From NCBI GenBank assembly GCA_963700285.1, contig CAVOXA010000001.1, positions 1,728,001-1,792,000 of the forward strand: a stretch of 64,000 bases of DNA. The letters run 5' to 3'. The stretch comes from an uncultured Chloroflexia bacterium (GTDB lineage: Bacteria; Chloroflexota; Anaerolineae; JAAYZQ01). Both the position numbers and the translations under genes were made by a program. Positions within the stretch are counted from its first letter, which is position 1, and every line of letters begins with the position of its first letter. This document shows, in pieces, positions 1,262 to 29,569 of the stretch. The notes beneath the pieces were generated by a model. It was not told the origin of the DNA. It ran no database searches and saw only the letters and a list, made by a program, of their open reading frames with translations.

Positions 1262-3130
1262 CTACGGCGGCGCCACCGTGGCCCCGCCACCCCCGCCACC
1301 CCCGCCTCCTCCCGAGCGCTTCCAGGTCAGCAAGCGCACGGCGCTGGCCGGACTGAGGGGCGTGCCCCTGGGCTTGCCCTGGGCGTCCTCCCCCGTCTTG
1401 AGCATCGCCCGCACCGACCAGCGGAACTCCCCATTCGTCGACAGGTCCGGCAGGTACTTGTGTTCGCTCATGGTCCAGCTCGTCCCTTTGGTCCAGGGCA
1501 CGTCGTCGGTCCAGGTGTCCCCTCCGTGGGGGTAGGTCACCGTGACGGCATAGAAGCCGTCGGCCGGCAACTGGCCCACCGGCGCCCATTCCAGGACGAT
1601 GGGCTCGTCCCCTGAAAACGCCTGGCCGCCGGCCGGGCCCCGCAGCACCGGTGCCGGGAACTCGTTGCCCGTCGACCGGGGTGGCTGCGTCCGCGTCGGC
1701 GGAGGCCGGGTCGACGGCGGCCGGGGCGCCGTTGCCGTTGGCGGTGCCGCTCTCGTCGCGGTGGCCGCCTGGCTAACCGTCGGCCTGGGCGTGCGCGTCG
1801 GCGCTAGCGTGCGGGTTGGTACTGCCATCTGGGTCGCCGTGTCGGCGGGCCGCTGGGTTGGCGCGTCGGTGGGTGGCGTCGTCGACGTTGGCTGTATCGG
1901 CGTTGGTGTTGGCTGGACGCGCGCCGGCGTCGCGCTCGGCGCCACGGCGGGCAGCGACGTCGGGTTCGGCGCGGCCCGCAGCGTTGCCGTCGGCTCCGGG
2001 GCCGGCCGGGTCGCCGTCGGCCTCAGCGTGGCCGTCTCGCCCGGCGGGTTCAGGGCCACTTCCAAGAGCTCGGTGGGCCGGCCCTGCTCCGTCCGTCCAT
2101 CTCTGCCGTTTCCCGTCATCAGGGCCAGCAGTCCCAGCAGGAGCAGCAGCGCCACGGCTACGCCGGCCAGGAACCAGGGCAGTTTTTTGCGATCCAGGCC
2201 CTCCCCCTGGGTCGGGAGAGGATCTGCCCTGCGACCCATCAACCTCGTCGGCGGCAGCGCGGCCGCACGGGCGGCGACGCCCAGGCCCGCAGGGCGGAGG
2301 GCAGCCTGGGCCAGTGCCCGGCGCATCTCCGCCGCTGACTGCCAGCGGTCCTGCTTTTGCAGGGCCATGGCCTTCAGCACCACGTCCTCCACGGCCGCGG
2401 ATACCTGGGCCCCGGGGTTGGCTTCCCGCAGGCCCGGCAGCGGCGCCCCGGCGCCCCGGTTCAGGGATTCCACCGGCGCCACCCCCGTCAGCAGATAGTA
2501 GAGCGTGCCGCCGACGCCATAGAGGTCGGTCCGGGCGTCGGTCTGCCCCCGCGTGGCGTACTGCTCCAGCGGCGCGAACCCCGGCGACAGGGCCAGCGCG
2601 CCGGTCATCGTGTGCTGGCCCTGTACGTACTCCTTGGCGATGCCAAAGTCGACCAGCATCGCCTTGCTGGCCTGTCCCTTGGGCCCGGCCGGCGTGACCT
2701 TGATGTTGGCCGGCTTTACGTCGCGGTGGATCACCGCCGGATCCTGGCTGTGCAGGTAGTCCAGCGCGTCCAAAACCTGGTCGGCCCAGGCCAGCGCCTG
2801 CGCCGAAGGCGCCGGCCCCTGCTGCTCCACCCGATCGGCCAGGTCGAGTCCCTCGACATAGTCCATGACCAGGTAGTAGCGCCCTGTCTGGGCGAAATAG
2901 TCGGTCACCCGCGGCAGGTGCGGGTGGTCGAGGTGGGCCAGGAAGCGCGCCTCGCGCTGGAACTGCTGCTGCGCCCTGGGCGAGACGTCCAGCGTCTCCT
3001 TGACGGCGCACAGCTTGTCCAGGCGCTGGTCGCGGGCCAGGTACACGGCCCCCATGCCCCCCTGGCCCAGCAGCCGCTGGATCTGGTACCGGTTTTGCAG
3101 GATGGTGCCTGCGGGTAGTAGGCTGGTCAT
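1262..3130 (-). CDS. Hanks-type Ser/Thr protein kinase 1 (kinase - TM - Pro/Thr linker - extracellular beta-sandwich)
   Basis: LGQGGMGAVY, AVKE, HRDVKPAN, DFGIA, FAPLEQ; TM LPWFLAGVAVALLLLLGLLALM; start placed at ATG 3130 inside ORF 1262..3187. Confidence 0.95.
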   Translation of the reverse strand: MTSLLPAGTILQNRYQIQRLLGQGGMGAVYLARDQRLDKLCAVKETLDVSPRAQQQFQREARFLAHLDHPHLPRVTDYFAQTGRYYLVMDYVEGLDLADRVEQQGPAPSAQALAWADQVLDALDYLHSQDPAVIHRDVKPANIKVTPAGPKGQASKAMLVDFGIAKEYVQGQHTMTGALALSPGFAPLEQYATRGQTDARTDLYGVGGTLYYLLTGVAPVESLNRGAGAPLPGLREANPGAQVSAAVEDVVLKAMALQKQDRWQSAAEMRRALAQAALRPAGLGVAARAAALPPTRLMGRRADPLPTQGEGLDRKKLPWFLAGVAVALLLLLGLLALMTGNGRDGRTEQGRPTELLEVALNPPGETATLRPTATRPAPEPTATLRAAPNPTSLPAVAPSATPARVQPTPTPIQPTSTTPPTDAPTQRPADTATQMAVPTRTLAPTRTPRPTVSQAATATRAAPPTATAPRPPSTRPPPTRTQPPRSTGNEFPAPVLRGPAGGQAFSGDEPIVLEWAPVGQLPADGFYAVTVTYPHGGDTWTDDVPWTKGTSWTMSEHKYLPDLSTNGEFRWSVRAMLKTGEDAQGKPRGTPLSPASAVRLLTWKRSGGGGGGGGGGATVAPP

Positions 3131-3189
3131 GGTAACTGACACTGAACCTTTCCGAGCGAGATGATGGTAGACGTAGTCTTTCCCCACTC

Positions 3190-4188
3190 CTAGTACTTGG
3201 CTTCCAGGGTATAGGGCTTGGTCAGATCGTCCCCAGCGAAGCGGTAGACCCGGATGTAGTGTTTTCCGCCTGACTCGGGTTTGAACTTGATAGACTCTCT
3301 TTCCCCTTTCCCTGCTGTACTCGATCCGGCGACCAGTTCCCTGTTGGCATCATATACCCACAAGTCCAGATCCAACGGCTCTGGTACTGTCAACGTGAGT
3401 TCGACTCGCTGGTTCTGAACAACGTTGATGTAGAAGTAGTCGCTCCTCTTGTCCTCCCCCCCTTGGCAGTACCCGACATAGGGCACATCTCGAGGTAGCG
3501 GCCCACACGCGGCAGTAAGCGTGTGGTTCGTAGCGCACGTAAAGTACGTTCGCATGACTGCCGGTACGAAGATGCTTTGCTTGACGACCACCTTGGGCGG
3601 CGTTTGATCACTGATCTCCAACGGTGTATTATCACCAACTCCTATTCTCGCTGTGTTGTCAAGTATTGTCTCGCCTACCGGCAGATCATCCAACCCGACG
3701 ACCTGCACCACGAACTTGAGCAGCACCGGCTCCGTCCCAACTTCGCCGTTCCACGTAAGCGTACCGGCGGGTGATTCTGTAAAGTCCTCGGACTGTTGGA
3801 AAGCGTAGAAGTTGCCCAGCACGTCGGTCACGGTAACACTGCCCATGAGCACGCCCGTATTGACGAGTTTGACGGTATATTCAACCAATGAACCCGGCGT
3901 TACTTGTTCGCCGCCTTTGTTGCTGGTTTTCGTTGAACTGCTCAGATTGGGATCTCGCCCGAAATCTGTACCCATCGCGATCAAGTCTCCACCCTTGGTG
4001 GCCGCAGTAGTGTATACCATGAGTGTGATTGCCTGACCTCGAGGAGTGGACATCTGCCCAGTATCCAGGTGTGTGGGTTGACTGGTACCTGCTGCCATCG
4101 CTGGAACTGCAGCGAAGCAAGCCACCACCAAAAAAGCCAGGATGTATTCCGCCAGGCTCCTGTTCAGATGGTCTCCTTTGCTTTTCAT
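3190..4188 (-). CDS. Secreted DUF11-like Ig domain + C-terminal PPC-like domain protein
   Basis: Signal peptide ending AMA; K..VTPGSLVEYTVKLVNTG..VTVTDVL (DUF11-like); DYFYI..LDLDLWVYD..YIRVY..Y.L (PPC-like); GGAGG RBS before ATG 4188; visibly AT-richer than its flanks. Confidence 0.75.
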   Translation of the reverse strand: MKSKGDHLNRSLAEYILAFLVVACFAAVPAMAAGTSQPTHLDTGQMSTPRGQAITLMVYTTAATKGGDLIAMGTDFGRDPNLSSSTKTSNKGGEQVTPGSLVEYTVKLVNTGVLMGSVTVTDVLGNFYAFQQSEDFTESPAGTLTWNGEVGTEPVLLKFVVQVVGLDDLPVGETILDNTARIGVGDNTPLEISDQTPPKVVVKQSIFVPAVMRTYFTCATNHTLTAACGPLPRDVPYVGYCQGGEDKRSDYFYINVVQNQRVELTLTVPEPLDLDLWVYDANRELVAGSSTAGKGERESIKFKPESGGKHYIRVYRFAGDDLTKPYTLEAKY

Positions 4189-4265
4189 TATGGCCCTCCG
4201 TCTTACTCGGAATTTCTTGCGCAACTCGATGGGAAGTGAGAGGTTCTAGTTCCTCAAGCAAGTCC

Positions 4266-5946
4266 TTATGGCCCCGGTGGGGCTTTGTTTTCCTCACTAT
4301 CTTTGCCATTGCCCCCACCACTAGTGTACTTGAACTTGCGTTTTGCTGCCCATTCGCCGGCTATCGTTGGCAGAACAGCTCGTTGTCAGCGCAGCCTTTG
4401 TGCACTACCACCACTGACCAGTAGTAGGTATCTGTCCCATACTTCTTGATGGCGGGTGCCTCCTGCTCAACTCAACCTGAGTTCGTACGCTGTTGTCGGT
4501 GGATGGCCCCCCGCCGTGGACGCCTAGGGGAAGACTGTCCTCGTCCTCGGCCAGATACGAAGGTCAAAGTAGTAGTCATCGGGCAGCGGCTCATCGTGCC
4601 CATCGCCACGCGAAGATCGGCGCGTACCCTCCAGCTCTGAATCGTTCGTCGGTTCTAGCAGCCCCGCAGCCGGGAACGGTACGTCGGCGTACTTGTCGGC
4701 TGGCGGTCCGCGCGTCGTGGGCTGCTGGGGCTCTTGTCGGCTGGCTTTGTGGCCGCAGTTGGTTCTGCGACCGTGGTCGGAATTAAGGTCGCTGTTGGCT
4801 CTCCCGGTGCCAGCTGCCTCTAGACCCGGCGAGCCTACCGGCGCCGGTGGGCACCGGCGTGTCTCGGCCAGTTGACGCGCCCTGGTCAACGGGTACCTTC
4901 AGCGGCGAGTGTAGCCGTGGGCGGGACGCCTGGACCTCCGGTACGTCGGATCGCCGGCAGCTGGCGCCCCGGTTTCGCCGCCTCGCGTAAAGAGGGTAGT
5001 AGATACCCAGGAGGATCAGCAGACCGCCAGCAAGACCCCCGCCACGGCCGCCATGGCCCAGGGCGCTCTGGATCAACGGCCGTTCCTGCGGCGCCGCCAC
5101 CACCGTCGGCACCCTGGACTCCCCGTCCGGGGCGCTGACAATCACCACGCCGATGTTGTCGCTGCCACCCCGCGAATTGGCCAGGTCGATGAGCAGGTCC
5201 GCCGCCTCCTCGGGCGGGTTCCGCCGCACCAGCTCCGCGATCTCTGGTCCTCCACGTGCCCGGTCAGGCCGTCGGTGCACAGGAAGAGGCTCTCACCCTC
5301 GTTCAGCGCTCCCTTCGAATATGTCCACTTCGACCGCAGGCTTGGCGCCCAGGGCGCGGGTGACCACGTTGCGCTGGGGGTGCTTTTTGGCCTGCTCGGG
5401 CGTCAGCAGCCCGGCCCGCATCTGCTCCTCCACCCAGGAGTGGTCGGTGGTGATCCGCTGGATCCCCTGCGGGCCGATGACATAGGCCCGGCTGTCGCCC
5501 ACGTTGGCCACGTACACCCTGCGCCCCAGGATGACGGCCGCTACCAGCGTGGTGCCCATGCCCGACTTGGATGGGTCGGACTGGGCCCAATTGTAGATCT
5601 TTTGGTTGGCGGCCCGAAAGGCGCGCGTCAGGCTGGTGGGAATGTCGTGGACGGCGTCGGGGTAATACTCCTGGCGGACCACCTCCACCGCGGCGCGGCT
5701 GGCCACCTCGCCCGCGCTGTGACCCCCCATCCCATCGGCCGCCATGTATAGCGCGCCCTTGCGCGCCAGCTCGTCCGGCTCCGGTGGGATGTAGTAATCG
5801 ACATAATCCTCGTTGTGGGGCCGGGAACGGCCGACGTCGGTCTTGGCGGCGACAGTCAGGTTCAGCGCCGGCTGACTGCCGGCCGGCCTGGGGGATTTGG
5901 CAGGTTCGGGCTTTGCCGGGGCCTGCGCCCCGCGGTTGCTGCTCAT
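4266..5946 (-). CDS. PP2C (Stp1/PstP-like) phosphatase 1 with TM and extracellular beta-sandwich; multiply frameshifted
   Basis: ORF 5293..5946 has TDVGRSRPHNED, ADGMGG, NVGDSRAY, DHS, TRALG. It continues in ORF 4783..5280 (GGSDNI, hydrophobic GGLLILLGIYY), then 4524..4889 (LPDDYYFDLRIW), then by manual reading YYWSVVVV...KFKYTSGGG...APPGP-TAA at 4266. Confidence 0.8.
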
Positions 5947-5986
5947 AAGCGCCTCCTTCGCTGCGGTGTCACGGCTGGAGAATCGA

Positions 5987-7615
5987 TCATGGCTCTGCGG
6001 TGGGCTGCAGCGTCACAGTTGGCTGCGACGTCGCACGTCCCTTGCTCTCAACGGGCACATAGCGGCCCTGGTCCAGCCGGTAGATCTTTTCCTCGGACAA
6101 CATCATCGGCCGAGCCCCATCTGCCGACACCCACCGGCCATGGGCCAGAATCGGCTCTCCCCTCTGTAGTTCGGGGTGAGCTTTGGTGTGTAAGGGGGTA
6201 TCGGGATACCCGCCGGCCGTGGCATACACCCAGACCGGTTCGCTCCGGCCAACCTCCTGAGCCTGATAGCCGCGCTCCCAGCTCGGATTCCACCACGCCC
6301 AGGTTGGCGGCCATTGTGTCCACAGGGGTTCCAGGAAATCGATCTGCTGGGCGACGACGGACCCCCTTGGTCCCTCCTGGTAGCCAAAGACCCAAACCCG
6401 CTTGCCCGGGAATTCCGTTGTGGCGTCCTGTTCCTCAAGGCTCACCAGAAAGGTCTCTGTGCCCATCCTCAACTGAAAATCGCAACCCCCGGATCTCTCC
6501 CGGCATCTCTGTGCCCGGCCCACCAGGAAGATCCCGCGCCGGGCGGGCCACAGGTCTGCCTCCCGCTGGTTCACCTCGTTCCCTTCCTGGGCCTCCATCG
6601 CCGCCACATCGTTGTAGCCCAGGCTGCTGGCAACTTGGGCCAGCGCCTCCTCGCCCAGCGAATCATAGTGCACAGGATGGGGTTGCGGGGCCGCCTGGGG
6701 CCCGGACCCCACTTTGCCCTGGGCCACCAGGACGGCAGCCGCCAGCGAGGCGATCAGACACAGAAACAAGAGAATGACCATACCCGCGGCCAGGGCCCGG
6801 TGCTCCCTCCCTCCGGCCTGGTCCGCGGCGACGCGCGGGCGGCCGAATAGACCGGTCCCGGGCTCAGCCTGCACCACCATGGCCGTGGCATTGTCTTTGC
6901 CGCCCAGCGTGCTGGCCTGGGCCACCAATTCGGCCGCTGCGGCGCCGGGCGGCTGGGCCTGGAGGATCTCGGCCATCTGCTTGTCCGAAAGCTCTCCGCT
7001 CACGCCGTCGGTGCACAGCAAGAGCGCATCTCCCTTGCGCAGCTTGCGCTCAAAGATGTCCACCTCCACCGTGGGCCGGATGCCCAGCGCCCGCGTGATC
7101 AGGTTGCGTTGGGGGTGCTTCTGGGCCTGCTCCCGGGTCAGCAGCCCGGCCCGAAACTGGGCCTCCACCCAGGAGTGGTCGACGCTGATCTGGGTCAGGC
7201 GCTTCCGGCGCAGCAGGTAGGCCCGGCTGTCGCCCACGTTGGCGATGGTCGCCTGGGGCCCCTTGCCCTGGAGGACGGCGGCCACCAGCGTGGTGCCCAT
7301 GCCGGCCAGGGCCGGATCGGCCTGGGCCCGTTCATAGACCTCCAGGTTGGCGACCTTGATGGCCCGCTCCAGGCTGTCGCCCACGCCGGGGCTGGTGTCC
7401 GCATAATAGGCCTCTTTCACCCGCTCCACAGCGGCCCGGCTGGCCACTTGCCCGGCCCTGTGGCCGCCCATGCCGTCCGCTACCAAAAAGAGCGCGCCCT
7501 TCTCCCGGCGCTGATCCTCATCCTCGGGCAGGCAAAAGCTGGTATAGTCCTCGTTTCTTTCACGCGTCGGCCCGGTGTCGCTCTTCTGGCCGATCTCCAA
7601 GTACGGTTCTGTCAT
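5987..7615 (-). CDS. PP2C phosphatase 2 with TM and large extracellular domain
   Basis: RERNED, VADGMGG, NVGDSRAY, LCTDG, GGKDN motifs; TM ALAAGMVILLFLCLIASLAAAVLVA; ~240 aa C-terminal domain of unknown family. Confidence 0.93.
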   Translation of the reverse strand: MTEPYLEIGQKSDTGPTRERNEDYTSFCLPEDEDQRREKGALFLVADGMGGHRAGQVASRAAVERVKEAYYADTSPGVGDSLERAIKVANLEVYERAQADPALAGMGTTLVAAVLQGKGPQATIANVGDSRAYLLRRKRLTQISVDHSWVEAQFRAGLLTREQAQKHPQRNLITRALGIRPTVEVDIFERKLRKGDALLLCTDGVSGELSDKQMAEILQAQPPGAAAAELVAQASTLGGKDNATAMVVQAEPGTGLFGRPRVAADQAGGREHRALAAGMVILLFLCLIASLAAAVLVAQGKVGSGPQAAPQPHPVHYDSLGEEALAQVASSLGYNDVAAMEAQEGNEVNQREADLWPARRGIFLVGRAQRCRERSGGCDFQLRMGTETFLVSLEEQDATTEFPGKRVWVFGYQEGPRGSVVAQQIDFLEPLWTQWPPTWAWWNPSWERGYQAQEVGRSEPVWVYATAGGYPDTPLHTKAHPELQRGEPILAHGRWVSADGARPMMLSEEKIYRLDQGRYVPVESKGRATSQPTVTLQPTAEP

Positions 7616-7653
7616 GGTTGCTCGTCATCTCCCATCGGCGCCGGCGCCGCCCC

Positions 7654-8907
7654 TCAAGGGGCTGGGCTCGGCGCGGATGGTGGTTCGGCCAACGGCGTTT
7701 CGGTGGTTATTGCCGTGGGTTCCGCTGTCGGCCGCGGCGTGGGCCGCGGTGTCCAGGTCGATGTGGCTGCCAGGGTGGCCGTGGGCTCCTTGGTGATGGT
7801 TGGCGTCTTTGTGATTGTCGGCGTACTCGTCGCTGTGTCAGTCAGGTTCACCGGCAGCACTGTTCCCTCGGTGCTTGCCGCTGCCGGCACCTCGCTTCCC
7901 GGCGCCATGCCGGGCGCAACCGGCTGATTGGAGAGCAATTGGGGCCAGAGCACCCAGCCTATCAGGGCCAGCAGGGCCAGCAACAGGGCCAGCGTGGCGC
8001 CCACCAGCACCAGGCGCGGCGCATAGCGCCGCCATGCCGACGGTCTCCGTGCGCCCTTACCCGCCCCATCCAGGACGCCCGACGCCACCGGATCGTGCTG
8101 GAGCATGGCCTGGATCAGCTCGCCGGCGGTGCGGAAGCGCGCTTCCGGTGGCTTGGCCAATGCTCGAAGGAGCGCCTGCTCCTGCTCCGGGCTGAGCTTG
8201 GGGTTGGCGTTCCGCGGCGAGGGCGGCGTCATCTCCAGGTGCTGGTTCAGCAGCACGATGTCGTGGTCGCCGCGCACCGGTGGCTTCCCGGCGATCATTT
8301 CGTACAGAACCACCCCCAGGGAATAGATGTCGCTCCAGGGACCCACCGGCCGGTCACCGGCCGCCTGCTCGGGCGAGGCATAGGTGGGCGTGCAGGCCTG
8401 GGTACAGGTGCCCTGGCGCTGGGCAATGCCAAAGTCGGCCAGGCTCGCCCGGCCTTTGCCGCTGATGAGGATGTTCTGCGGTTTTATGTCCAAATGAACC
8501 CAACCCAGGCTGTGGATGGCATCCACAGCCTCGGCCACCGGCTTGAGTAGCTTGGCCGCCGCTGCCGGATCGAACCGGTTTCTGCCTTCCTTGGCCCGCT
8601 GCAGCATGTGCCACAGCGAATCGGCCACATACTCCAGGGCCACAAAGAGGTTTCCCTCCGGCGTGCGGCCCACCTTGTACAACTGCCGGACGTTGGGCGT
8701 CCCCTCCTGGTTCAGGTAGGCCGTCAACCGCGCCTCGGCCTGGAACTTGGCATAGGTTTGCTCATCGCGGCGGTGCAGGACCTTCAGGGCCACGTACCGT
8801 TCCAGCGACTGGTCCCAGGCCTTGTAGACCACCGAATGGCGGCCCCGTCCCAACTCGGCAACGACCTGGTATTGGTCAATGGTGCGTCCGATCAGCGAGT
8901 TGGCCAT
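7654..8907 (-). CDS. Ser/Thr kinase 2, non-RD type (kinase - TM - Pro/Thr-rich tail)
   Basis: LGRGRHSVVY, VALK, HLDIKPQN, ADFGIA, YASPEQ, SDIYSLG; TM LVLVGATLALLLALLALIGWVLW. Confidence 0.92.
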   Translation of the reverse strand: MANSLIGRTIDQYQVVAELGRGRHSVVYKAWDQSLERYVALKVLHRRDEQTYAKFQAEARLTAYLNQEGTPNVRQLYKVGRTPEGNLFVALEYVADSLWHMLQRAKEGRNRFDPAAAAKLLKPVAEAVDAIHSLGWVHLDIKPQNILISGKGRASLADFGIAQRQGTCTQACTPTYASPEQAAGDRPVGPWSDIYSLGVVLYEMIAGKPPVRGDHDIVLLNQHLEMTPPSPRNANPKLSPEQEQALLRALAKPPEARFRTAGELIQAMLQHDPVASGVLDGAGKGARRPSAWRRYAPRLVLVGATLALLLALLALIGWVLWPQLLSNQPVAPGMAPGSEVPAAASTEGTVLPVNLTDTATSTPTITKTPTITKEPTATLAATSTWTPRPTPRPTAEPTAITTETPLAEPPSAPSPAP

Positions 8908-8922
8908 GCTCGTCTCTGCTCG

Positions 8923-10515
8923 CTATTCCCTGGCAGCCAGGTACAGGTCGGGGTTCAGGCCCGGCTGCCATGCTCCACGGCTGTGCGTCACGGCGCCGCT
9001 CTCCAGGGTGACCGTGTAATCATACTCGCCCGCGGGGAAATGGATGGTTCGCCTCTGGCCAGCCCTCAGGCTCCAGGGCCGGTCTCCGATCTCCAGCTCC
9101 AGGCTGTAGTCAGTGTCGTTGATGACCACCAGTTCGGCCAGGTTTCCTGTGGCTGTCCCCGGTGAGCTACTCGCGGGCCCGTCGCTGGCCTGCTGTCGAC
9201 CATCCTCTGTTCTGCCTGTGAGCTGAAGGGCGGCCGCAGCGATGACGAGCAGGACCAGCACAATGCCCCCGCCCAGCAGGGCGAGCGCGCAGGAGCGCGG
9301 GTTGGCGCGCAGCCTCCGCCACAGCCCCGAGAGCGGGAATGCCCTGGCTCCCGCTGGCCCTGGCCGCTCGCTGGTGGTATCCACGGCCACGACTGAGACA
9401 AACTTGGGTCCCAGGCGCACCTGATCTCCGGGCCGCAGCGTATAGGGATGGTTCGGGGCCAGCGGCTGGTTGTTGATGAACGTGCGATTGCGACTGCCCA
9501 GGTCCACGATCTGGCACCGCGCTCCCTGGCTCCGGATCTGGGCGTGATATCTGGAGATGAGGGTGTCCGGGATCTGGACCTGGTTATCAGATGCGCGCCC
9601 CAGGCCGACTATGCCAGCCAGCGGATATGCCCGGCCGTCGTTGGCGAGGAGCTTTAGCCTGGATTCGCCGCTCCGCGCCAGCTCGCCTGCAGGCTTGGGC
9701 AGCGCTGCTTGCTCCAGCGCCGCCGCCAACTGGCCCGCCGACCCAAAGCGCTTGCTGGGCCGCTTGGCCATGGCCCGCAGGATGACCTTTTCCACCCCGC
9801 GGGGCAGATCGGGCACCAACTGGCTGGGGGGTGTTGGATCCAACTGTACGTGGCTCTGCAACACCTTGTGCGACGAGGTCGCCTGGAAAGGCACCCGGCC
9901 CACCAGCAGCTCGTAGAGGACCACGCCCAGGGAATAGATGTCGGATCGGTAGTCGACCTGGCGCCCACTCGCCTGTTCGGGTGACATATATTCCGGGGTT
10001 CCGATGCGCACACCCTCTCCGGTGAGGTTCAGGCCCGCCGCGGCCTTGACGATCCCAAAGTCCATCAGCGTCACCCGGCCATCGGGAGCGATCATCACGT
10101 TGCTCGGTTTCACGTCCCGGTGAACCAGCTTGTGCTGATGGGCATAGTCCAGGGCGTCCGCCAGGGCGCGGATGATCTCCACGGACTTTTCCAGGCGGGG
10201 GGCTCCCCGCTGGCCGATCTCCTGCTGCAACGTACGGCCTGGCAGGAACTCCATGACGATATAGTGCGTCCCGCCCTCCTGGTCCACGTCGTAGATGGTC
10301 ACGATGTTGACGTGCTTGAGCTGAGCCGCAGTCTGTGCCTCCCGGTGAAAGCGCTTCACAAACTCATCGTCGGCAGCCAGCTCGTGCTTCAGGACTTTTA
10401 GCGCCACGGTACGCTGCAGGTCCGGGTGGTAGCCCTTGTACACCACCGCCATGCCGCCCTGGCCGAGTTGCTCGACGACCTGGTATTTTCTCAGAGCGCT
10501 GCCCACCAGACTCAA
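8923..10515 (-). CDS. Ser/Thr kinase 3 (kinase - FHA - TM - small extracellular domain)
   Basis: LGQGGMA, HRDVKPSN, DFGI, GTPEYMSPEQ; FHA GLGRASDN..ISRYHA..DLGSRNRTFIN; TM ALALLGGGIVLVLLVIAAAAL. Confidence 0.95.
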   Translation of the reverse strand: MSLVGSALRKYQVVEQLGQGGMAVVYKGYHPDLQRTVALKVLKHELAADDEFVKRFHREAQTAAQLKHVNIVTIYDVDQEGGTHYIVMEFLPGRTLQQEIGQRGAPRLEKSVEIIRALADALDYAHQHKLVHRDVKPSNVMIAPDGRVTLMDFGIVKAAAGLNLTGEGVRIGTPEYMSPEQASGRQVDYRSDIYSLGVVLYELLVGRVPFQATSSHKVLQSHVQLDPTPPSQLVPDLPRGVEKVILRAMAKRPSKRFGSAGQLAAALEQAALPKPAGELARSGESRLKLLANDGRAYPLAGIVGLGRASDNQVQIPDTLISRYHAQIRSQGARCQIVDLGSRNRTFINNQPLAPNHPYTLRPGDQVRLGPKFVSVVAVDTTSERPGPAGARAFPLSGLWRRLRANPRSCALALLGGGIVLVLLVIAAAALQLTGRTEDGRQQASDGPASSSPGTATGNLAELVVINDTDYSLELEIGDRPWSLRAGQRRTIHFPAGEYDYTVTLESGAVTHSRGAWQPGLNPDLYLAARE

Positions 10516-10712
10516 CGCGGACTGTCCTTTCCCCCTCTATCCGATCGTGGGGTGCACCGTATCCAACGGTTGACATAACATACAGGACTCAGGAGCACAT
10601 AACATGGCACACATCCTCGTGCAACTGCATGGTCTCTGCGGGCCGTGTTCTGGTGTACAACGCCACGGTACAGAGAGGGCAATTGGGCATTGTGACTTGT
10701 ACAGGGGCCTTG

Positions 10713-13700
10713 CTACGGCCCGTACCACCAGGCGCCCTGCGCTGTTCCGGCGTGCATTATACCACAATTCGCCGGGTGGCGCAATGCCTTGACGTTCAGG
10801 TTGCCCAGGCCTCGGTTCACCGGATTCCAGTCTTTCCCCCCATTCGTTGTCGCGTATACGCCGCCGCCGTTGGTCCCGGCGTACAGCGTCTGGCTGTTGG
10901 CTGCGTCGATGACCAGAGCTCGCAGATCGCGGTGGGCCAGGTTCCCGTTGGCCGGGGACCAGTTCGCGCCGCCGTTTGTGCTCTTGTAGACTCCCCCACC
11001 TCCCAGGCCGGCGTATACCGTCTGCCCATTGCCCGGATCGATGGCGATGGCCCAAGGATATCCGTTGCCCGGTTGGCTGGCGAACTGCCACTGGTTGCCG
11101 CCGTTGGTGCTCTTGAAGATGCCCCCCTGCGTGCCGGTGTAGACCACGTTGCGGTTGCGGGGGTCCACGGCCAGGGCGTGGACGTTGCGGTTGCTCAGGC
11201 CGCTGACCACCGGGAACCATGACGTACCGCCATTGGTGCTCTTGTACACGCCGCCGCCCTGACCTGCCGGATGCTCGTGGCCGCCGGTGTACAGTATCTG
11301 GCTGTTGGCAGGATCCGTGGTGAGGCCATACAGCCACAGGCAGCCCAGCCCGTTGTTGATCTGCGCCCAGGAGGCACCGCCGTTGGTGCTCTTGTAGACG
11401 CCCTGGCCCCAGGTGGTGGCATAGATCACCTGGCTGTTGTTGGGATCGATGGTCACTGCCGAGACGAGCGTCGAGCTCGCGGAGCCGCCGTCGGCCTTGG
11501 CGAAGGGTGGGGCGGCGACGCCCGGCGCCTGGGCGGCGAGGACGCTGTTCAGTCCTGAGGACCTCCATGAGTTGCCACCGTCCGTTGACTTGTAGAGGCC
11601 CCGGTCCGTGGCTGCGTACAGGGTGTTGCAGTTGGCTGGGTCCACGGCCAGGCCGTAGACGGCGCGGGCTTGGATGCCCGTGCCGACATGCCACTGGGCT
11701 GCCGGTGGCGCCGCCCCTTGGTGTCTCAAGGCAGTTGGCAGGAAGGCCTTGACTGGACGGAGGCGAGCTGTCGCCCAGCCCTCGTTCCCTGTGCGGTCCG
11801 TCGCCTTACCTACAACTACTGAGACCTGCTCCGCCGACACAGTGAACGGTCCGGAATACACCTTTACTGTTTGGCCAGAATCGGTTGAATAACTGACCTT
11901 TGCCACGCCAGACTGCGTGTCGGTGGCCGTAATCGTGACCTTGACCGCACCTACGTACCACCCATCGGCATCCTTCGTCCCCTCTGGGTCTATGGATATG
12001 GAAGGTGGAACCACATCCTGGCTGCCACCTGGACCCACATCGCCTGTCGGTGGCATTCGAAGATCCAAGGTTCCATTGCCGTCGGTATCCAGTTGCGAGA
12101 TCGGGTGCAGCAGCACTACTACCAGGGTCATAGGTCAGCTTTCCGGAGCCATCTGGGTGTATCGGCGCATCTGCGTACACGACCGTCCGTCTAATCAGGT
12201 CCTCGTCCAGACCCTTCAGATTGCGGATTCGAAGGTCGAAATCCTGAGCGCCATCTGATTCAATCTCCACTGTGTAGATAGAACCTGTGGGCACGCCAAT
12301 GAACATGGCGTCCTCTACTACAAGGTAATCACTGCCAGGGATGCCGAGTTCCAGCCTGCCCTCGTTGTCCAGACCAGTATGTCTTCCTGACTGATCGTAT
12401 ACGTGCAATGCCACGGCCCCAAAGACTGCAATCTGACCGCCGTTTAGCTCAAAGGGCGTATCGGACATTTCGGGAGGGGTAGGCGGTACCGTTGCCCTGT
12501 GTCGAGGCTTGGGGAAATCACTGGGCGAACCTAGATACAGGGCAGGGGTAGACGGATCGGGGCGTTGCGTGCTAGCATAGACGCCAGTTGACGCCGTTGT
12601 GTCAGGTGGACTCGCCAAGAGGAATCCGATATAGTCCGTTACATACGGCGTGTTGATGAGACCCGTGTGGTCTACGTCGGTAGGGGTGTACACGGTGTGC
12701 GCATCGCCCGAGTAGTCAAGACCTCCCGGAACCTGCAGGTCAGCGCTATGCGTCGGTACAGTTCCATCGCCGTTGATCATCTCCATGTCAAGCATGGATT
12801 GCGTCCGACCCGTCCAGTCGAGCCTCTCTAACTCGTGAAGGATGCCAGGCGTATTTAGACCCCCACTGCCAACGATCAGGTGGAAGGTAACATCAAGCGG
12901 CTTGCTGCCCCAATCATCCATAGCCGCGCTGTGGAAACTCTCGGCGTCACCGGCCAGGTAGGCATTGTTCTTGTCCAGGATGACATCGCGTGTCTGTTGC
13001 CTCGTCTGCATCTTACCATTCACGCGATAGTAGCCATCCTTGTAGACTCCAAAGTAACGCTCGGTGGGCAGGATCTGGTACATGGCTGGAAGGTTCTGGG
13101 ACACGGCGCGTACCGTCGGCGGGTGGACGGGACCGACCATGATCCAGAATGTCTCGAACCACCCGGCATCGCCCCAACGCAACACTTTGAGCGCTTTCGG
13201 GGCACCAAGGTAAGGGGTGCCGAGGGAGATGACCTGTTCCACCCTTGCAGCTCGATCCGACTGAGAGGTGACATAATATCGCGCCAGGAGGCCACCCAGG
13301 CTGTGGGCTACGATGTTCACTTGCTGCGCTCCTGTTTCCTTCTGTACTTCCCTGACCTTCGTGTCCAGATCCTCGGCCGTTTTCCCGTAGATCGAGACGC
13401 CAGTCGTAGTCAAAGGTGTACACATTGAAGCCCGCCCGTTTCAGTTCCTCGATCAGAGGGCCGTAGACCTTGATGAACCCACGAAGCTCCCAATCAATGA
13501 TCCCCTTCGCCCGGATGTCGGCACATGGTGATGCCGCTCTCATACCCCATTTGTCCAGTTTCAGGACATTGAGATGCAAATCAAAGGGGAGTGCTAACAG
13601 CGCCGGACTAGGCCAGACTTCATACTCGAAACCCAGACAGGAGTCTTTGTTCCACAAACTGCTGCCAAGCAGGCCTGGGATGATGATCACCGGTGGTCTG

Positions 13701-14257
13701 GTATGAGGCACACCAGAGGCATCAGTACTCAAGTCATCGATGAGCCAATAATTTCCCGTATCATGCAAGATGACATACTTCAACAGTCTTCCAGGGGGTG
13801 CATCCACGCGTAGACGAGCCAATTGCCCGGTCCACAGATTGCCTCCTACCGAAGCTGTGGCCGCTTTGGTGTTGTCCTCGTAGTAGCCGTCCATGGTGAG
13901 TCCTTCCGCACTGCTCACCGACACCTGGAGATAGGTCGCACCCGCTCCAGTAAAGTCGATCCGTCCAGCACCCTGGTTGGGGCCAAGCCAGGCGAAGAAG
14001 TTGCCATTGCTGTAGTAGGCGTCCTGGGGGTAAGGCCCGTGGTACTGGCCCGTGCGCCAGTCTCCATAGAGCCAATCTTGGCCTGCTGTGGTAGTAAACT
14101 GCAGCCCAGGAATGGAGCTTCTGATTGCTTGGCCATCGACACCATTTTCGAAGTCAACAAACCCGTCAGCTCGGGCAGTGGGCACGGTGGACAAACCAGC
14201 GCTCCCAGCATTGACAAGAATGGTCAGGATAAGAGTGATTGCCAGGGATCGTTTCAT
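10713..14257 (-). CDS. Large secreted protein: N-terminal beta domain + LCAT/PGAP1-type alpha/beta-hydrolase + Ig-like domain + BNR/Asp-box beta-propeller; two frameshifts
   Basis: Three overlapping ORFs form one continuous architecture. 13013..14257: signal peptide, PVIIIPGLLGSSL, YDWRL. 11806..13425: VAHSLGGL nucleophile, LGTPYLGAPKA, GDGTVP, DH. 10713..12131: repeated YKSTNGG.SW Asp-boxes. Confidence 0.82.
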
Positions 14258-14410
14258 GATACCTCCTGTCTCAGCCCGGTCATAGCGGCGGAGAGCGCAG
14301 CCAGGTGCCCCGCCATCATGAGCAGAAGACCAGTGCTCCGTCGCGAGCAGCCGCTACCTCCGGAGGTTCGCAAGCTGTCGAAGCGGCCCGTACATGGTCT
14401 CTCATGAACC

Positions 14411-15601
14411 TCATCCTCCGGCCTTCGACGCCCTACTTTCGAAACTCCGGCGTCGGGTCCTTCGGTTGTCCGGCTTGTCCTTGCTCTTCTCCGTCCACAG
14501 GAAGAACCGCGTCTCGCTCTTGGGGCTCAGGGCCGGGCCCTCCTTGGTGTCGCCCTGCATGGCGTTCTCTTGCCGTACCGTCACGTCCCACTCAAAGCGC
14601 CCCTGGTCCGCCTGGCCATAGAGCCACTCGGGCACGCGCCACTCCGTTGCCTGCGTCCAGGTGCCCTGGAACTGGGGCTGATCCTGCTGCATGTAGCGCA
14701 GCGAGACGTGATAGTACTCGTTGCCCTGCAGCTCGCCCACAGCTTCCCAGGTGAGCAGGATCATGGCACCCTCGCCGTGAAACGATGCCCCATTCCCGGG
14801 CGCGACCAGCGTTGGCGCCGGGTAGCGCTCCGATCCAGCCACGGCGCCAGGCGTGCCGATGGGGAAGAGCGGGGTCATGATTTTTGTCCAGTCCTGGATG
14901 CCCTGGAGGACGTCCTGCCATTTTACTGTCTGCCCGGCTGCCTGGCCTCCGGCGACTGGCTGCCCGCCTCCCGCAACCTGCCCTCCTGCTGCCGGCTGCC
15001 CCCCGGCTGCTGGCGGTATTGGAGTGGCGAGCGCGGGCACCGTGGCTACCACCGCCTGGGCCGTGGCTGCAAGCTGGCTGCCGGCCGTCGCCACCTGTGG
15101 GGGCAGCGCGATCGCCGGCGCGGGCGTGCTGGCCGCAGCGGCCGTCTTGCCGTCGGCCGCCCCTCCCAGGACAACAACAGCCAGCACGATCAGGGCTAGC
15201 AGCAGCACGGCCGCAAGGCCGCCCAGCGCATAGATCCAGGGCGAGACACCGGCGCCAGCGCGGGGGGCTTCCGCTGCGTATTCGTCTCCGAAAGGCTCTG
15301 CCCTGTCATAGTCCTCTCGGACAGAGAAAGCATGCTGCCCACCCATGGCGATGACGCTGCCAGGATGGATGGGCAAGGCCTGGTGGGCCGGCAGACTCTG
15401 GCCGTCGAGTGTGGTTCCGTTGGTGCTGCCCAGGTCCTCCAATAGATAGTTGTGGCCATCGTACTGGATCGCGGCGTGGTAGCGCGAGACTTGGGACAGG
15501 CTCAACACAATGTCATTGTCTGGACCGCGACCCAGGATGGTGCGCCCAGGGTAGAGCGGTACTTCCCGACCGTCGTAGAGGACCAGTTTCAATCGCTCCA
15601 T
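14411..15601 (-). CDS. FHA - TM - linker - extracellular beta-sandwich protein
   Basis: ILGRGPDND..VSRYHA..DLGSTNGT; TM WIYALGGLAAVLLLALIVLAVVVL; C-terminal YPAPTL...WDV domain. Confidence 0.9.
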   Translation of the reverse strand: MERLKLVLYDGREVPLYPGRTILGRGPDNDIVLSLSQVSRYHAAIQYDGHNYLLEDLGSTNGTTLDGQSLPAHQALPIHPGSVIAMGGQHAFSVREDYDRAEPFGDEYAAEAPRAGAGVSPWIYALGGLAAVLLLALIVLAVVVLGGAADGKTAAAASTPAPAIALPPQVATAGSQLAATAQAVVATVPALATPIPPAAGGQPAAGGQVAGGGQPVAGGQAAGQTVKWQDVLQGIQDWTKIMTPLFPIGTPGAVAGSERYPAPTLVAPGNGASFHGEGAMILLTWEAVGELQGNEYYHVSLRYMQQDQPQFQGTWTQATEWRVPEWLYGQADQGRFEWDVTVRQENAMQGDTKEGPALSPKSETRFFLWTEKSKDKPDNRRTRRRSFESRASKAGG

Positions 15602-15736: not shown

Positions 15737-16432
15737 CTAAGCCAAGGCAAAGACCAGGAGCACGCCCAGCGTCATCAGCAGGATCACGGTCAGAATGGCC
15801 ATGATAATGGCCAGGGCCCATATTCCCCTTTCGTTCGAGGGACCCCCGGCCGATCCGCTCCTTGTCTGGGGGAAAGGCCGGGCAACGATCGGCTCGGTTG
15901 GTGTCGTACGCTGGACCGGCCTTACCTGCTGTTGCTCCTCTCTCCATTCGGACCCGGCTGGCGCTGTTCCTGGCAGAGGGTGGCCGCAGCGTACGCAGTA
16001 GACTGAGGCCGGGTGGTTGGCAGTGCCACACTGGGCGCAGAATGTCTGGCTGACCATCAGGTACTGGAAGCCCATCGGCGGCGTCCCATCGCCATTGCGC
16101 CAGGACTGGCCCCCGGGTGGCAAGGGGCCCGGTCGCACACAAGTGTCTCGCTGCGCAAGGTAGGTCAGCCGGGCGTCGCCCATGGCGATCACGTCGTTGT
16201 GATGCAAGAGAAGGGGCGCCCGCAGGAGCTGGCCATTTACAAACGTTCCATGGGTGCTGCCCAAATCTTCGATGACGACTTGATCGCCGTTGTGCCAGAC
16301 CCAGGCGTGGCGCCGGGAAGCAAGGCCCGATCGCAACCGCAGATCGTTGTCCCAGCCCCGGCCGATCATCATCTGCCAGCGGACCGGCTCCCAACGGATT
16401 CCACTGCCATCTTGTACGACAAACTCGCCCAT
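15737..16432 (-). CDS. FHA - zinc ribbon - C-terminal TM protein
   Basis: IGRGWDND..ASRRHA..DLGSTHGTFVNG; CAQCG..YCVRCG; C-terminal TM; ATG 16432 preceded by GGAGGGGAAGG. Confidence 0.88.
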   Translation of the reverse strand: MGEFVVQDGSGIRWEPVRWQMMIGRGWDNDLRLRSGLASRRHAWVWHNGDQVVIEDLGSTHGTFVNGQLLRAPLLLHHNDVIAMGDARLTYLAQRDTCVRPGPLPPGGQSWRNGDGTPPMGFQYLMVSQTFCAQCGTANHPASVYCVRCGHPLPGTAPAGSEWREEQQQVRPVQRTTPTEPIVARPFPQTRSGSAGGPSNERGIWALAIIMAILTVILLMTLGVLLVFALA

Positions 16433-16572
16433 TGTCCTTCCCCTCCAACCTGAGCCAACGCCTATGCCGCAGGCGGTCACCCATGCTTCAGGTCGTCGTT
16501 GCCTGCTGCCGTCCGAACAGAGCCCCCAAGACGCGGCTCCTGCACGGCAGCCAGGAAGATGCCAGGGCCGGC

Positions 16573-17115
16573 TCAGTACAGGTGGATCGTGAACACCGTG
16601 TTGCTGACTCTTATCTGTTCGCCGCCGCGCAGGCGTATCTGCGTGATGCGGCGGCCGTTTACATAGGTGCCGTGGGTGCTGTTTGTGTCTACCAGGTACA
16701 GCCCGTCCCTCTGCCATTCCAGGCGCGCGTGTTGCCGGGACGCTTGCGGATCTGGCAGAGTGATGTCGCATCTGCTGCTCCGGCCCAGGGCGATCATCGG
16801 TCGCGCCAGCGGAAACTGTGCGTCCCGCAAGGGTCCGCTGCGGATCAACAGCATGGCAGCCGGCACGCCTGCGGACTGGTACTTTGGTGGCTCGGGCTGG
16901 TGCGTTGGTGGACGGGGTAGCGACGATGGAGTGAAGCTGCGGTAGGCAACCCCGCCCCTTACTGGCTGCCTCAATGGCACTGGTGTTGGTGTCGCCAGCT
17001 TGGTCTTGGGCCGCTGGGCAAAGAGTACCAGCACGAGCAGCCCTGCTACGATGGCCAGCAGCGACATGAAGACCAATAGTACGATTACTGCAATCTCAGA
17101 TTCTGGCATACCCAT
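16573..17115 (-). CDS. N-terminal TM - FHA protein (FhaB-like topology)
   Basis: TM IAVIVLLVFMSLLAIVAGLLVLVLFA; LGRSSRCD..ASRQHA..STHGTYVNG. Confidence 0.9.
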   Translation of the reverse strand: MGMPESEIAVIVLLVFMSLLAIVAGLLVLVLFAQRPKTKLATPTPVPLRQPVRGGVAYRSFTPSSLPRPPTHQPEPPKYQSAGVPAAMLLIRSGPLRDAQFPLARPMIALGRSSRCDITLPDPQASRQHARLEWQRDGLYLVDTNSTHGTYVNGRRITQIRLRGGEQIRVSNTVFTIHLY

Positions 17116-17317
17116 CCTCTCTCAACATTGGCCGCGCACTCCCCCCCACGGGGTATGCTCTCAGTTCTTCCGTCAAGAAACTGCGACTCAGTGGAAAACC
17201 CTTGTCTCCAGACGCAGCGGTTCTCTCCAAAGACGCCCCCGTAGCGAGCAGGATCACGCCGCCCAGGGCCAACGCCAGAAAGGCTAGCCCGAAAACGAGC
17301 AAGATCCGGGTGCGCAC
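17096..17317 (-). CDS. Small membrane/secreted protein
   Basis: 73 aa with a hydrophobic N-terminus; GAGGAGG RBS before GTG; fills the operon gap. Confidence 0.5.
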   Translation of the reverse strand: MRTRILLVFGLAFLALALGGVILLATGASLERTAASGDKGFPLSRSFLTEELRAYPVGGSARPMLREDGYARI

Positions 17318-17392
17318 TTGTCCCTCCTCTTCCGATCAGGCGGTTCTCGAGTGGCAGCCCTGGCTTTGGCGCTTCCTGCGATGGGTCTGTCC

Positions 17393-18700
17393 TCATTTAG
17401 GCGCGGCTACTTCCTGGCGGAGGTTCAGGTACACGGCGCAGGCACTAGCCAGGTAGAGCAGGCGCGGGATACTCAGGGTCAGCACCAGCAGCGCGAGCAA
17501 CCACAACCCAAATAGAAAGCGCGAGATCTTGTAGGTCGCCGGCAGCCCAGGCCCGCCAGCGATGCCAAGCAACCAGAAAGATAGGCTCGACATCAGGTCC
17601 TCAATGTTTAGCGGCAGGCCGCTCAGGACCGTCACAAACTTGCCCGTGCCCATGCCGGCGGAGGTCAGGGTCAGGGTGGTATACGCCGCAACGGACAGTA
17701 GGTAGAGGCTAAACAGGAAGAGGAGCAGCGCCGCCAGGCCTGCCAACATCATGTAGCCAACCAGTCGGATCGGAGCGCGGCGGACCATGTCCAGCACATG
17801 GGTCAGTGTGTCGCCGATGCCCATACCACGGTCGGCAACGGTTGGGGCAATCAGCGCTGTTCCGAACCAGGCGACGAGGATGATCACCAGGTTCAGGGCC
17901 AGCAGGGGAAGAAAGGCCAGCGACACCAACAACTCCCCCAGATAGTCAATGCGCCCAACGAGCAGCAGCATGAATTCTGCTACCAGGGCCAGTACCAGAC
18001 CCAGGCTCAAGACCACCGGGGACAGGAGAAACGAGAGATAGGTCTGCCTGACATAGCCTGCTGCCTCCCGGAGGTCCTCCTTTCTGCCTTCCCTCAGTTG
18101 GACCAGGATCAACCGGCTGATGACGGCCGTCACAAAGGTGGAGCTGAGCCATACGGTGCCCAGACCAACCAGGCCGATGGCGGCAGCGATCGCGGTACTT
18201 TCAAAGAGGACCTGGGTTGCGATCCAGAAGAAAAGCAGCCCTACCACACCCGTAACCAGGAAACCAACAAACAGCAGCCCCAGTTTTCGGTAATCCAGTG
18301 CGACGTCGATCGCCCGCAGGATCATGTCCAGGCCTCCAGCCGCAGGGACGGACGATGGGGCGCCTGCCGCGGCGGGCCGGATCGCGAGCCGGATGGCGTC
18401 GGCCGTGACGGTGACGGTCATGGTTGGACCAAAGCGCAAAGATGCGCCCGGAGACACCTGCGCGGCCTGACCCGGCGGCAGCCGTCTGCCCCCAAGAAAG
18501 GTGCCGTTCGTGCTGCCCAGATCGACGACCACGCACTGCTGCCGCCCGTCCCAGTGTAGTTCCGCGTGCCTTCGGGACATGGACCCATCGTCTAGTACAA
18601 TGTCATTGTCCGCTGCCCGGCCAACGGTGTTCACGCCGACCCTCAGCGGATGGGTCTGGCCATCGTCCGTCGTCAGCCTCATCGGTTCTCCCCCACCCAT
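17393..18700 (-). CDS. FHA + multi-pass membrane domain protein
   Basis: VGRAADND..MSRRHA..DLGSTNGT followed by ~6-7 hydrophobic helices. Confidence 0.9.
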   Translation of the reverse strand: MGGGEPMRLTTDDGQTHPLRVGVNTVGRAADNDIVLDDGSMSRRHAELHWDGRQQCVVVDLGSTNGTFLGGRRLPPGQAAQVSPGASLRFGPTMTVTVTADAIRLAIRPAAAGAPSSVPAAGGLDMILRAIDVALDYRKLGLLFVGFLVTGVVGLLFFWIATQVLFESTAIAAAIGLVGLGTVWLSSTFVTAVISRLILVQLREGRKEDLREAAGYVRQTYLSFLLSPVVLSLGLVLALVAEFMLLLVGRIDYLGELLVSLAFLPLLALNLVIILVAWFGTALIAPTVADRGMGIGDTLTHVLDMVRRAPIRLVGYMMLAGLAALLLFLFSLYLLSVAAYTTLTLTSAGMGTGKFVTVLSGLPLNIEDLMSSLSFWLLGIAGGPGLPATYKISRFLFGLWLLALLVLTLSIPRLLYLASACAVYLNLRQEVAAPK

Positions 18701-18701
18701 C

Positions 18702-26800: not shown

Positions 26801-27000
26801 GAGTTCAGATCCTCCACGAGCCAGCCATCACGGCCCCAGACAAACTGGGCGTGTCTGCCTGAGACGTTGGGGTCCTCCAGGACAACGTCGTTCTGCCTGC
26901 CCCTTCCCAGCCTCAAAATCGATTGGTAGATGGGCAGCTCATCCTGGCCGCCCCTGGCAATCTGGACTTGTAGGATACCATGAAGCTGTTGGGCACTCAT
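23852..27000 (-). CDS. FHA-FHA-FHA - ABC ATPase - ABC2 permease fusion (Rv1747-like exporter); multiple frameshifts
   Basis: Three FHA motifs (SGRHA..SSNGT; SGHHA..STNG; SRYHA..SDNGT); Walker A GASGAGKST, LSGGQRKR, FFLDEATSGLD, VTH; permease motifs REIVKE..IYRRER and PQFLFAG. Confidence 0.88.
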
Positions 27001-27053
27001 TCAGAAGGAATCTCCTCGCAAAAGATGGTACGAATCACTGTCCAAGACAGGCC

Positions 27054-29452: not shown

Positions 29453-29569
29453 CGCTGCTATTCCAGCTTGAACTCCTGACCTTGATGAAAAAGGCTGTGT
29501 TGGGATCGGCTGGCGGCCCACGCTGCGCTGCGCTGGATGCGTAGCCTGACGGCTTCGCCTCCCTTCTCC

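Follow-up and report, generated by a model that had tools for sequence, protein, structure and literature searches.

An Fn3-like C-terminal domain family in a Ser/Thr signalling cluster of an Anaerolineae bacterium and its putative role at the cell envelope

Receptor kinases of the PASTA type (PknB, PrkC, and Stk1) consist of a cytoplasmic Hanks kinase, one transmembrane (TM) helix, and an extracytoplasmic module common to cell-wall proteins, and their genes are clustered with PP2C and FHA genes. According to PMC6213207, their activation depends on dimerization and their PASTA domains bind muropeptides. A comparable arrangement is present in the DNA analysed here, a 64,000-nucleotide stretch (C1:1728001-1792000 of the source genome; hereafter, the window) from an uncultured Chloroflexia bacterium of the class Anaerolineae. 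A domain scan of its open reading frames (ORFs) revealed a large Ser/Thr signalling cluster on the minus strand, running from about 38.8 kb to 1.3 kb, in which a kinase (kinase 1), a PP2C phosphatase (PP2C-1), and an FHA protein each end in a fibronectin type III (Fn3)-like domain. Kinase 1 has the Hanks kinase and the single TM of PASTA-type receptor kinases. However, PASTA repeats gave no match on the window proteins at E values up to 0.1, and the predicted fold of the domain is all-beta. The window system also differs from PASTA kinases in having a single Fn3-fold domain and a long stalk, and in carrying this domain on the phosphatase and the FHA protein as well.

A second parallel is found in mycobacteria, where pstP, fha, and pkn genes are laid out in one cluster and where Rv1747 is reportedly an FHA-bearing ABC transporter phosphorylated by PknF. 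Similarly, the window contains an exporter gene with three FHA domains, ABC_tran, and ABC2_membrane, as well as TM-anchored PP2Cs and FHA proteins, but its cluster is much larger: it has more than ten FHA proteins, three PP2Cs, a vWA-TM-FHA protein, and arrayed kinases whose ectodomains vary. At the level of the domain, bacterial Fn3-like modules (PF00041, PF25788, and CbhA 3pdg/3pe9) are alike in their seven-strand sandwich, as predicted here. Yet the modules compared are located on secreted glycosidases, whereas the window family is almost always terminal on bitopic membrane proteins, stays below Pfam and NCBIfam thresholds, and is nearly confined to one class. FNIII proteins are also described in GAP1-N2 GTPase conflict systems (PMC7159879), a different setting. 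Among 58 window ORFs scanned, several of them matchless and none searched with a dedicated profile, no Pfam match to GAP1-N2 or a GTPase component was found.

The original prediction, made from the window sequence, proposed that the three tails carry the same extracellular Fn3-like domain, which would co-localise kinase, phosphatase, and adaptor through homotypic contacts or a shared ligand in a metazoan-like receptor logic. The analysis shows that the tails belong to one family, which is C-terminal after a hydrophobic helix and a linker, occurs class-wide, and is found in many architectures.

Three related tails with a predicted Fn3 fold

The genes and domains concerned are as follows.

1262..3130, minus strand: kinase 1, an intact Hanks-type Ser/Thr kinase (Pkinase, E 1.7e-37) with a TM at 2117-2173, a Pro/Thr stalk, and an Fn3-like domain
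1313..1663, minus strand: Fn3-like domain of kinase 1 (alignment, predicted model, fold search, and tree)
4266..5946, minus strand: PP2C-1, a PPM phosphatase with a TM at ~4984-5065, a Pro/Thr stalk, and an Fn3-like domain; broken gene (PP2C Pfam matches and intact orthologs)
4320..4685, minus strand: Fn3-like domain of PP2C-1, PP2C-type subfamily, spread over three frames (profile and ortholog model)
14411..15601, minus strand: intact FHA adaptor with FHA at 15341-15538 (E 2.3e-19), a TM at 15161-15217, a linker, and an Fn3-like domain
14486..14830, minus strand: Fn3-like domain of the FHA protein (alignment and tree)

Catalytic motifs and a TM were detected in kinase 1; PP2C-1 matched Pfam PP2C and PP2C_2, and PP2C catalytic motifs are visible in its frames, as in Stp1/IreP-type PPM phosphatases. 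The domains of kinase 1 and the FHA protein lie at the C-termini where they had been predicted and are related, with 36 identities in 114 positions (32%, E 2e-16). One hydrophobic helix precedes each tail (Kyte-Doolittle 2.8 for kinase 1 and 3.1 for the FHA protein), together with a low-complexity linker that is Pro/Thr/Ser-rich in kinase 1 and Ala/Gly/Gln/Pro-rich in the FHA protein. This hydropathy pattern agrees with the predicted extracytoplasmic position of the domain.

The PP2C-1 copy is indeed hidden by frameshifts. A frameshift-aware search with a profile of eight kinase/FHA-type sequences gave its tail 19.6 bits, which is the background level: 640 of 641 random stretches scored at most 20.8 bits, and the remaining one, at 83.9 bits, is probably a real copy of the domain. 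A profile built from six intact PP2C ortholog tails recovered window positions 4320-4673 at 37-51 bits, against background maxima of 26 bits (496 random stretches) and 21 bits (581 stretches), and an 18-sequence profile scored the tail at 68 bits, a value given without a background set. Profile-profile comparison of the PP2C type with the kinase/FHA type, on which the original prediction had staked the relationship, was significant (HHalign probability 96.2%, E 2.4e-9). Independently of this comparison, both types matched the same two unnamed Atlas clusters (0.91-0.94); by its Atlas clusters the phylum is Chloroflexota. The three domains are therefore homologous, but calling them the same domain overstated the case, since identity between the PP2C and kinase types is only about 18%.

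The source genome comprises 7.05 Mb in 22 contigs, and many of its genes are broken. A full-length ortholog profile threads PP2C-1 through six frameshifts, i.e., the gene has at least six breaks. In relatives, its orthologs are intact single frames of 510-616 aa with the order PP2C, TM, Pro/Thr linker, and beta domain. Short-read contigs correct two of the breaks: those from two studies have one extra base at 5244, where a break was predicted at 5245, and two contigs of one run have one base fewer near 5310-5314, where it was predicted at 5304. No contig from the six short-read runs searched, each of which contains at most 10% of the sequence words, lies over 4100-4970 (PP2C-1 tail, linker, and TM), and the breaks of the tail stand without read confirmation. 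Further frameshifted genes of the assembly, found within window:21407-27000 (ketol-acid reductoisomerase, a B12 radical SAM protein, and the FHA-ABC exporter), point to indel errors, and the PP2C-1 frameshifts are likely assembly errors as well. Since other genes of the same assembly are broken too, it is unlikely that PP2C-1 is a pseudogene, although this is less certain for its tail. The ortholog search gave no close PP2C-1 match in a same-genus genome. Taken together, the sequence comparisons support a real PP2C-Fn3 fusion. The predicted join of tail and phosphatase agrees with the intact orthologs and with the two read-corrected upstream breaks, but in the source strain it rests on the orthologs and not on reads.

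Predicted models of both subtypes are all-beta sandwiches, with a predicted local distance difference test score of 85.4 and a predicted template modelling score of 0.78 for the kinase-1 domain, and 96.6 and 0.88 for a PP2C-type ortholog domain. The top Foldseek and VIA rows for both models were nearly all Fn3 domains. Foldseek matches include EpoR (E 7.7e-4) and IL-27 (E 2.1e-4). The best VIA Z scores for the two models were 9.2 and 10.0, with a root-mean-square deviation (RMSD) of 2.9 Å and 89-95 residues aligned; POMGNT2 and CbhA modules were matched at Z 9.2 and IFNAR1 at Z 10.0 (RMSD 2.9 Å over 89 residues), and the CbhA modules 3pdg/3pe9 gave Z 9.1-9.2 (RMSD 2.8-3.1 Å, 84-89 residues). 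Fn3 domains of Dscam, RPTP, and cytokine receptors were also among the neighbours. These models support an Fn3 fold, a seven-strand β-sandwich, for both subtypes, as originally predicted. Since no single match stands out, the fold class is supported but no function follows from it.

At the sequence level, the domain is a real, unannotated Fn3 family and a member of no curated family tested. None of 99 family members matched NCBIfam; four matched Pfam fn3 (PF00041) weakly, with a best E value of 0.0072, and one matched Ig_Rha78A_N (PF25788; E 0.0047), none reaching the gathering threshold. The best E value in PDB sequence searches was 0.27, and Atlas leads to the fn3 and Ig_Rha78A_N clusters were 0.84-0.87. 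The family comprises 1,767 database clusters at 50% identity with E up to 1e-3, 859 of them up to 1e-10; this cluster search replaced an earlier word-indexed protein search that had found 2 proteins among 236 candidates. No description of the domain was found in open-access literature text, supplements aside, and the available part of PMC4877987 does not mention fibronectin, LysM, or kinases.

Distribution, architectures, and subfamilies

The source genome has 11 domain matches at 10 places, in addition to the PP2C-1 tail, and the domain is present in 40 of the 41 genomes of the relatives set. In a phylum-wide sample, for which 15 candidates were scored per genome and the kinship of unlisted genomes was inferred from the family tally, it was found in all 35 genomes of nine same-class families versus 7 of 265 other Chloroflexota, two of these seven matches being weak. 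Most same-class genomes have one copy, in a frame of ~400 aa, and such frames in loci from other families are (zinc ribbon)-TM-LysM-domain proteins. The class-wide, near-universal carrier appears to be this zinc ribbon-TM-LysM protein. A scan of named genomes with the LysM carrier of a same-class genome gave five loci, of which only that of Thermoflexus (93% identity) covers the domain. NCBI files Thermoflexus under Thermoflexia, GTDB under Anaerolineae, and one member of a homolog's cluster bears the label 'Anaerolineae bacterium'.

Architectures were taken from 100 regions (top scores, two multi-copy genomes, and operon loci) plus seven from the source genome, a non-random sample holding 115 domains in 113 ORFs, with a single domain in 111 of them. 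The main partners comprise 15 kinases, 11 PP2Cs, 3 FHA proteins, 31 LysM, 4 SH3b, 5 with a zinc ribbon only, and 44 others or fragments; that is, 29 carriers have a kinase, PP2C, or FHA domain and 84 have none. Other fusions involve Wzz (4 of 43 scanned), HlyD, FecR, PD40, TPR, vWA, an NBR1 Ig domain, and a caspase domain, and a lipobox lipoprotein without a cytoplasmic part is a carrier as well. The domain is last, at most 40 aa from the C-terminus, in 107 of the 113 locus ORFs and 140 of 151 database proteins, and of the 83 database proteins in which 170 or more residues lie upstream of it, 75 have a TM before it.

Recurrent gene contexts were also observed. A lipobox lipoprotein with a Pro/Thr stalk and the Fn3 domain is encoded inside the F0F1 ATP synthase operon at L005:5647-6657 (C9:323646-324656) and in 11 relative loci, all from the window's family; atpG is next in 12 of 12, atpA precedes it in 11 of 12 (the contig of the twelfth ends), and mreB follows atpC in 8. 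In several families, 10 loci have rseP, encoding a site-2 protease, immediately before the gene of a bitopic Fn3 carrier (L007:4037-6309, L020, L040, L042, L048, L081, L101, L104, L106, and L116), namely in eight of ten zinc-ribbon-type loci and with one zinc ribbon-SH3 and one FecR carrier; these carriers could be RseP substrates of anti-sigma-like design. The zinc ribbon-TM-LysM(2-3)-Fn3 gene, as at L003:5648-7021 (C1:85647-87020), looks like a near-universal single-copy gene of the class, and in family f1 it is followed by genes for a small membrane zinc-finger protein, an unannotated 550-aa membrane protein, and a radical SAM/SPASM protein (14-16 of 31 loci).

Only W28 and W84 are invariant, and P7, P12, L34, and V86 are nearly so. 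Such structural-looking positions, the match to CbhA and other cellulase Fn3-like modules, and the very dissimilar partners would suit a passive cap or spacer. In this reading the domain would be a stable fold at the end of the disordered Pro/Thr stalk, shielding the stalk from proteolysis or setting how far it reaches, and would have no specific ligand. In cellulases, Fn3-like modules are often regarded as spacers. A spacer would, however, usually be placed between domains, whereas this one is terminal in 107 of 113 ORFs, and it is kept in 35 of 35 same-class genomes with polar positions conserved. The conserved polar or aromatic positions that do not look like core residues are D37, E38, aromatic 39, W59, T60, R90, and R112, as judged from the alignment and not on the model. 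A passive role is thus considered unlikely.

Subfamilies were delineated with quick trees of ~120 columns, in which many forks are open. The kinase-1 domain groups with that of another source-genome kinase, zinc-finger-like TM proteins, and HlyD adaptors (10 rows, support 97); this subfamily includes the C1:1282k copy, the C1:1721k kinase, and HlyD proteins of relatives. The closest sequences to the FHA-protein domain are those of LysM carriers (41-46% identity), and the PP2C-1 tail groups with the PP2C type (14 rows, support 97). An approximately unbiased (AU) test (LG+G4), run on 42 rows, comprising 41 of the 99 jointly aligned rows and the PP2C-1 tail read through with X, which forms a long branch fitted to the PP2C-type profile, rejected one clade for the three window domains (p 0.00027). 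A local duplication of one domain among the three genes is rejected by the same test. By this sequence-based analysis, the three domains are shown to be members of separate subfamilies.

Separate subfamilies might also mean separate functions. If each had its own ligand, kinase 1, PP2C-1, and the FHA protein would answer different cues and have only their ancestry in common. The rejected single clade fits this explanation, as do well-supported subfamilies in fixed contexts, namely the PP2C type, the atpA-atpG lipoprotein, the zinc-ribbon/FecR carriers behind rseP, and the LysM carriers. However, the kinase-1 subfamily mixes kinases, HlyD, and zinc-finger-like TM proteins, for which a generic ligand fits better, and divergent sensors are considered rather unlikely.

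One form of the original prediction, in which homotypic binding of the domain would assemble kinase, phosphatase, and FHA adaptor into a receptor complex as in metazoan adhesion receptors, must be weighed against these distributions. All three genes are in one cluster, and the PP2C-Fn3 fusion is conserved: among the 14 closest PP2C-1 matches, 12 have the domain, complete or partial (of the other two, one is cut by a contig end and one was not among the fetched loci). Adjacent kinase and PP2C genes both carry the domain in the relative genome G014 and probably in G008. Moreover, the domains of two FHA-Fn3 proteins and of a kinase-Fn3-PD40 protein fall within the PP2C type, where the window FHA copy does not; the tree gives at least two origins for FHA fusions and several for kinase fusions. 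Recruitment of the domain onto signalling proteins is therefore recurrent, a point in favour of the original prediction.

Nevertheless, 84 of the 113 carriers are not kinases, PP2Cs, or FHA proteins, and the three window copies belong to different subfamilies, with only 18-32% identity between them. Syntenic operons do not preserve the trio either: beside the PP2C-Fn3 gene of seven relatives, only 1 of 19 kinase ORFs, some of them truncated, carries the domain, and no FHA-Fn3 gene was found in these loci. For only 2 of the 29 signalling carriers was a further carrier detected at a distance of up to 7 kb; since the profile misses distant copies, one of which was seen by eye on L075, these neighbour counts are lower bounds. 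Within the source genome, the domain was found on 3 of 21 kinase ORFs, with one frameshifted gene in addition, and on 1 of 17 FHA ORFs. Complex prediction for the kinase-1 and FHA-protein domains (31-row alignments each) scored 0.00, but its controls were not folded, and the result weighs neither way. A dedicated code for writer, eraser, and reader was thus not upheld, and the homotypic complex is improbable.

The structural neighbours from Dscam, RPTP, and cytokine receptors favour the homotypic complex as well, and metazoan receptor tyrosine phosphatases and kinases and cytokine receptors are alike in the predicted fold and in having an Fn3 ectodomain on kinase and phosphatase. In contrast, the window family has no significant sequence similarity to them (best PDB E 0.27), acts with a Ser/Thr kinase and a PPM phosphatase instead of Tyr chemistry, and usually has a single domain (111 of 113 ORFs) where metazoan receptors have Ig/Fn3 arrays. 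The resemblance is an analogy.

A putative envelope-contact module

The presence of the same domain on many non-signalling membrane proteins across the class makes a general envelope module likely and not a private code of the trio. The favoured reading is a general cell-envelope contact module on stalked single-pass membrane proteins, for which the case is about evenly balanced. Judging from hydropathy, the carriers would have an N-in/C-out topology, with the stalk lifting the domain into or through the peptidoglycan toward an inner layer. There, the domain would tether its carrier to, or sense, an envelope glycan or a layer protein, as PASTA or LysM domains do. One Chloroflexota species is described in PMC13319060 as having peptidoglycan, an inner layer whose composition is unknown, an outer layer, and an S-layer-like lattice, and by analogy the source organism is assumed to have the same layers. 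Ligand-driven clustering may promote autophosphorylation of kinase 1; PP2C-1, held in the same zone, would reset kinase 1, and the FHA protein would bind the phosphothreonines as a read-out.

Association with the LysM and SH3b partners may at most hint at binding to muropeptides or peptidoglycan. Co-localisation would occur via a common envelope ligand, common also to LysM, SH3b, Wzz, and HlyD carriers, which would make any co-localisation of the trio indirect. The shared ligand of the original prediction thus stays plausible, but not as one private to kinase, phosphatase, and adaptor. The distribution (35 of 35 same-class versus 7 of 265 other genomes) is compatible with an envelope ligand specific to the lineage. 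Shuffling has likely brought the domain onto kinases, PP2Cs, and FHA proteins more than once, in line with the FHA and kinase fusions that fall within the PP2C type. The domain would be one ectodomain among several that can replace each other: neighbouring kinases carry CBM9, PD40, FlaA-like, or other ectodomains.

Several points weigh against an envelope-contact function. A shared fold, here a predicted one, shows no function, and the ligand-binding role stays putative; the subfamilies are 13-30% identical and differ at many conserved positions, which leaves a single ligand for all of them uncertain. With a median net charge of -4 the domain is acidic, whereas many proteins that bind anionic wall polymers are not. 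The topology is predicted from hydropathy only, and most carriers are already TM- or lipid-anchored, for which reason the domain is not needed for retention. Finally, the architecture shares come from top matches, two multi-copy genomes, and operon loci.

An extended form, in which the domain would be the PASTA equivalent of Anaerolineae, is doubtful. This class-signature Fn3 module would read a lineage-specific envelope layer via one ligand, gathering kinases, phosphatase, FHA scaffolds, RseP-linked regulators, Wzz, and LysM wall proteins. If true, the domain could readily be used to probe the unknown chemistry of the inner layer in Chloroflexota.

The surrounding gene cluster and significance of the domain

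Other parts of the signalling cluster, identified by domain scan, are as follows.

5987..10515, minus strand: PP2C-2 (different ectodomain), kinase-TM, and kinase-FHA-TM, with no Fn3-like domain detected in these three genes
15737..19685, minus strand: FHA-zinc ribbon-TM, FHA, FHA-multi-TM, and PP2C-3-TM
24255..38777, minus strand: upstream part of the cluster, with a frameshifted FHA x3-ABC exporter, TM-kinase, Lgt, FHA-TM proteins, FHA-TM-PD40, vWA-TM-FHA, and FHA-kinase-FHA

Three further kinases lie just beyond the window edge, and the core gene order is found again in family relatives (loci L058-L069). Window:1262-38777 plus L001:8181-16440 form a supercluster for Ser/Thr signalling that measures ~50 kb. 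Its core (FHA-kinase, vWA-TM-FHA, FHA x3-ABC exporter, and PP2Cs) is conserved and is followed by a kinase array whose ectodomains vary from genome to genome.

PP2C-2 (window:5987-7615), the only phosphatase scored with NF033484, passes its cutoff and has a different unannotated Trp-rich ectodomain of ~240 aa that is kept in relatives; the protein is 45% identical over 549 aa to that of L061. A second unannotated kinase ectodomain (~150 aa, Cys/Trp motifs, without a Pfam match) recurs at kinase C-termini (L058:5780-7570, L061:1370-3157, L067:3094-4914, L067:5000-7108, and L004:7912-9945). Secreted-looking proteins are scattered in the cluster (window:1-1224, 3190-4224, and 10713-14257), including FGE-sulfatase/Fn3-like and PPC-domain types and a frameshifted lipase-like/BNR-propeller gene, and several have a common short hydrophobic 'F/Y-L-P-x-V/I-x-R'-like motif. 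Directly upstream of the signalling cluster, window:39309-64000 holds a surface-polysaccharide cluster with Wzz, a ParA-like ATPase/tyrosine kinase, a sugar transferase, Wzy_C, several glycosyltransferases, and a sortase.

Sediments and digesters commonly harbour Anaerolineae, and in at least one Chloroflexota envelope there are layers whose composition is unknown (PMC13319060). The domain described here is small and well-folding and lacks a Pfam or NCBIfam model; every same-class genome tested has it, and it is rare in the rest of the phylum. It points to a likely core protein of the envelope, the zinc ribbon-TM-LysM-Fn3 protein, and provides the case of a bacterial PP2C whose folded ectodomain is conserved and homologous to those of kinases. 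By analogy, the domain may work like a PASTA or LysM ectodomain while folding like Fn3, a view held with no more confidence than doubt, and it offers a direct handle for finding the envelope ligand by pull-down.

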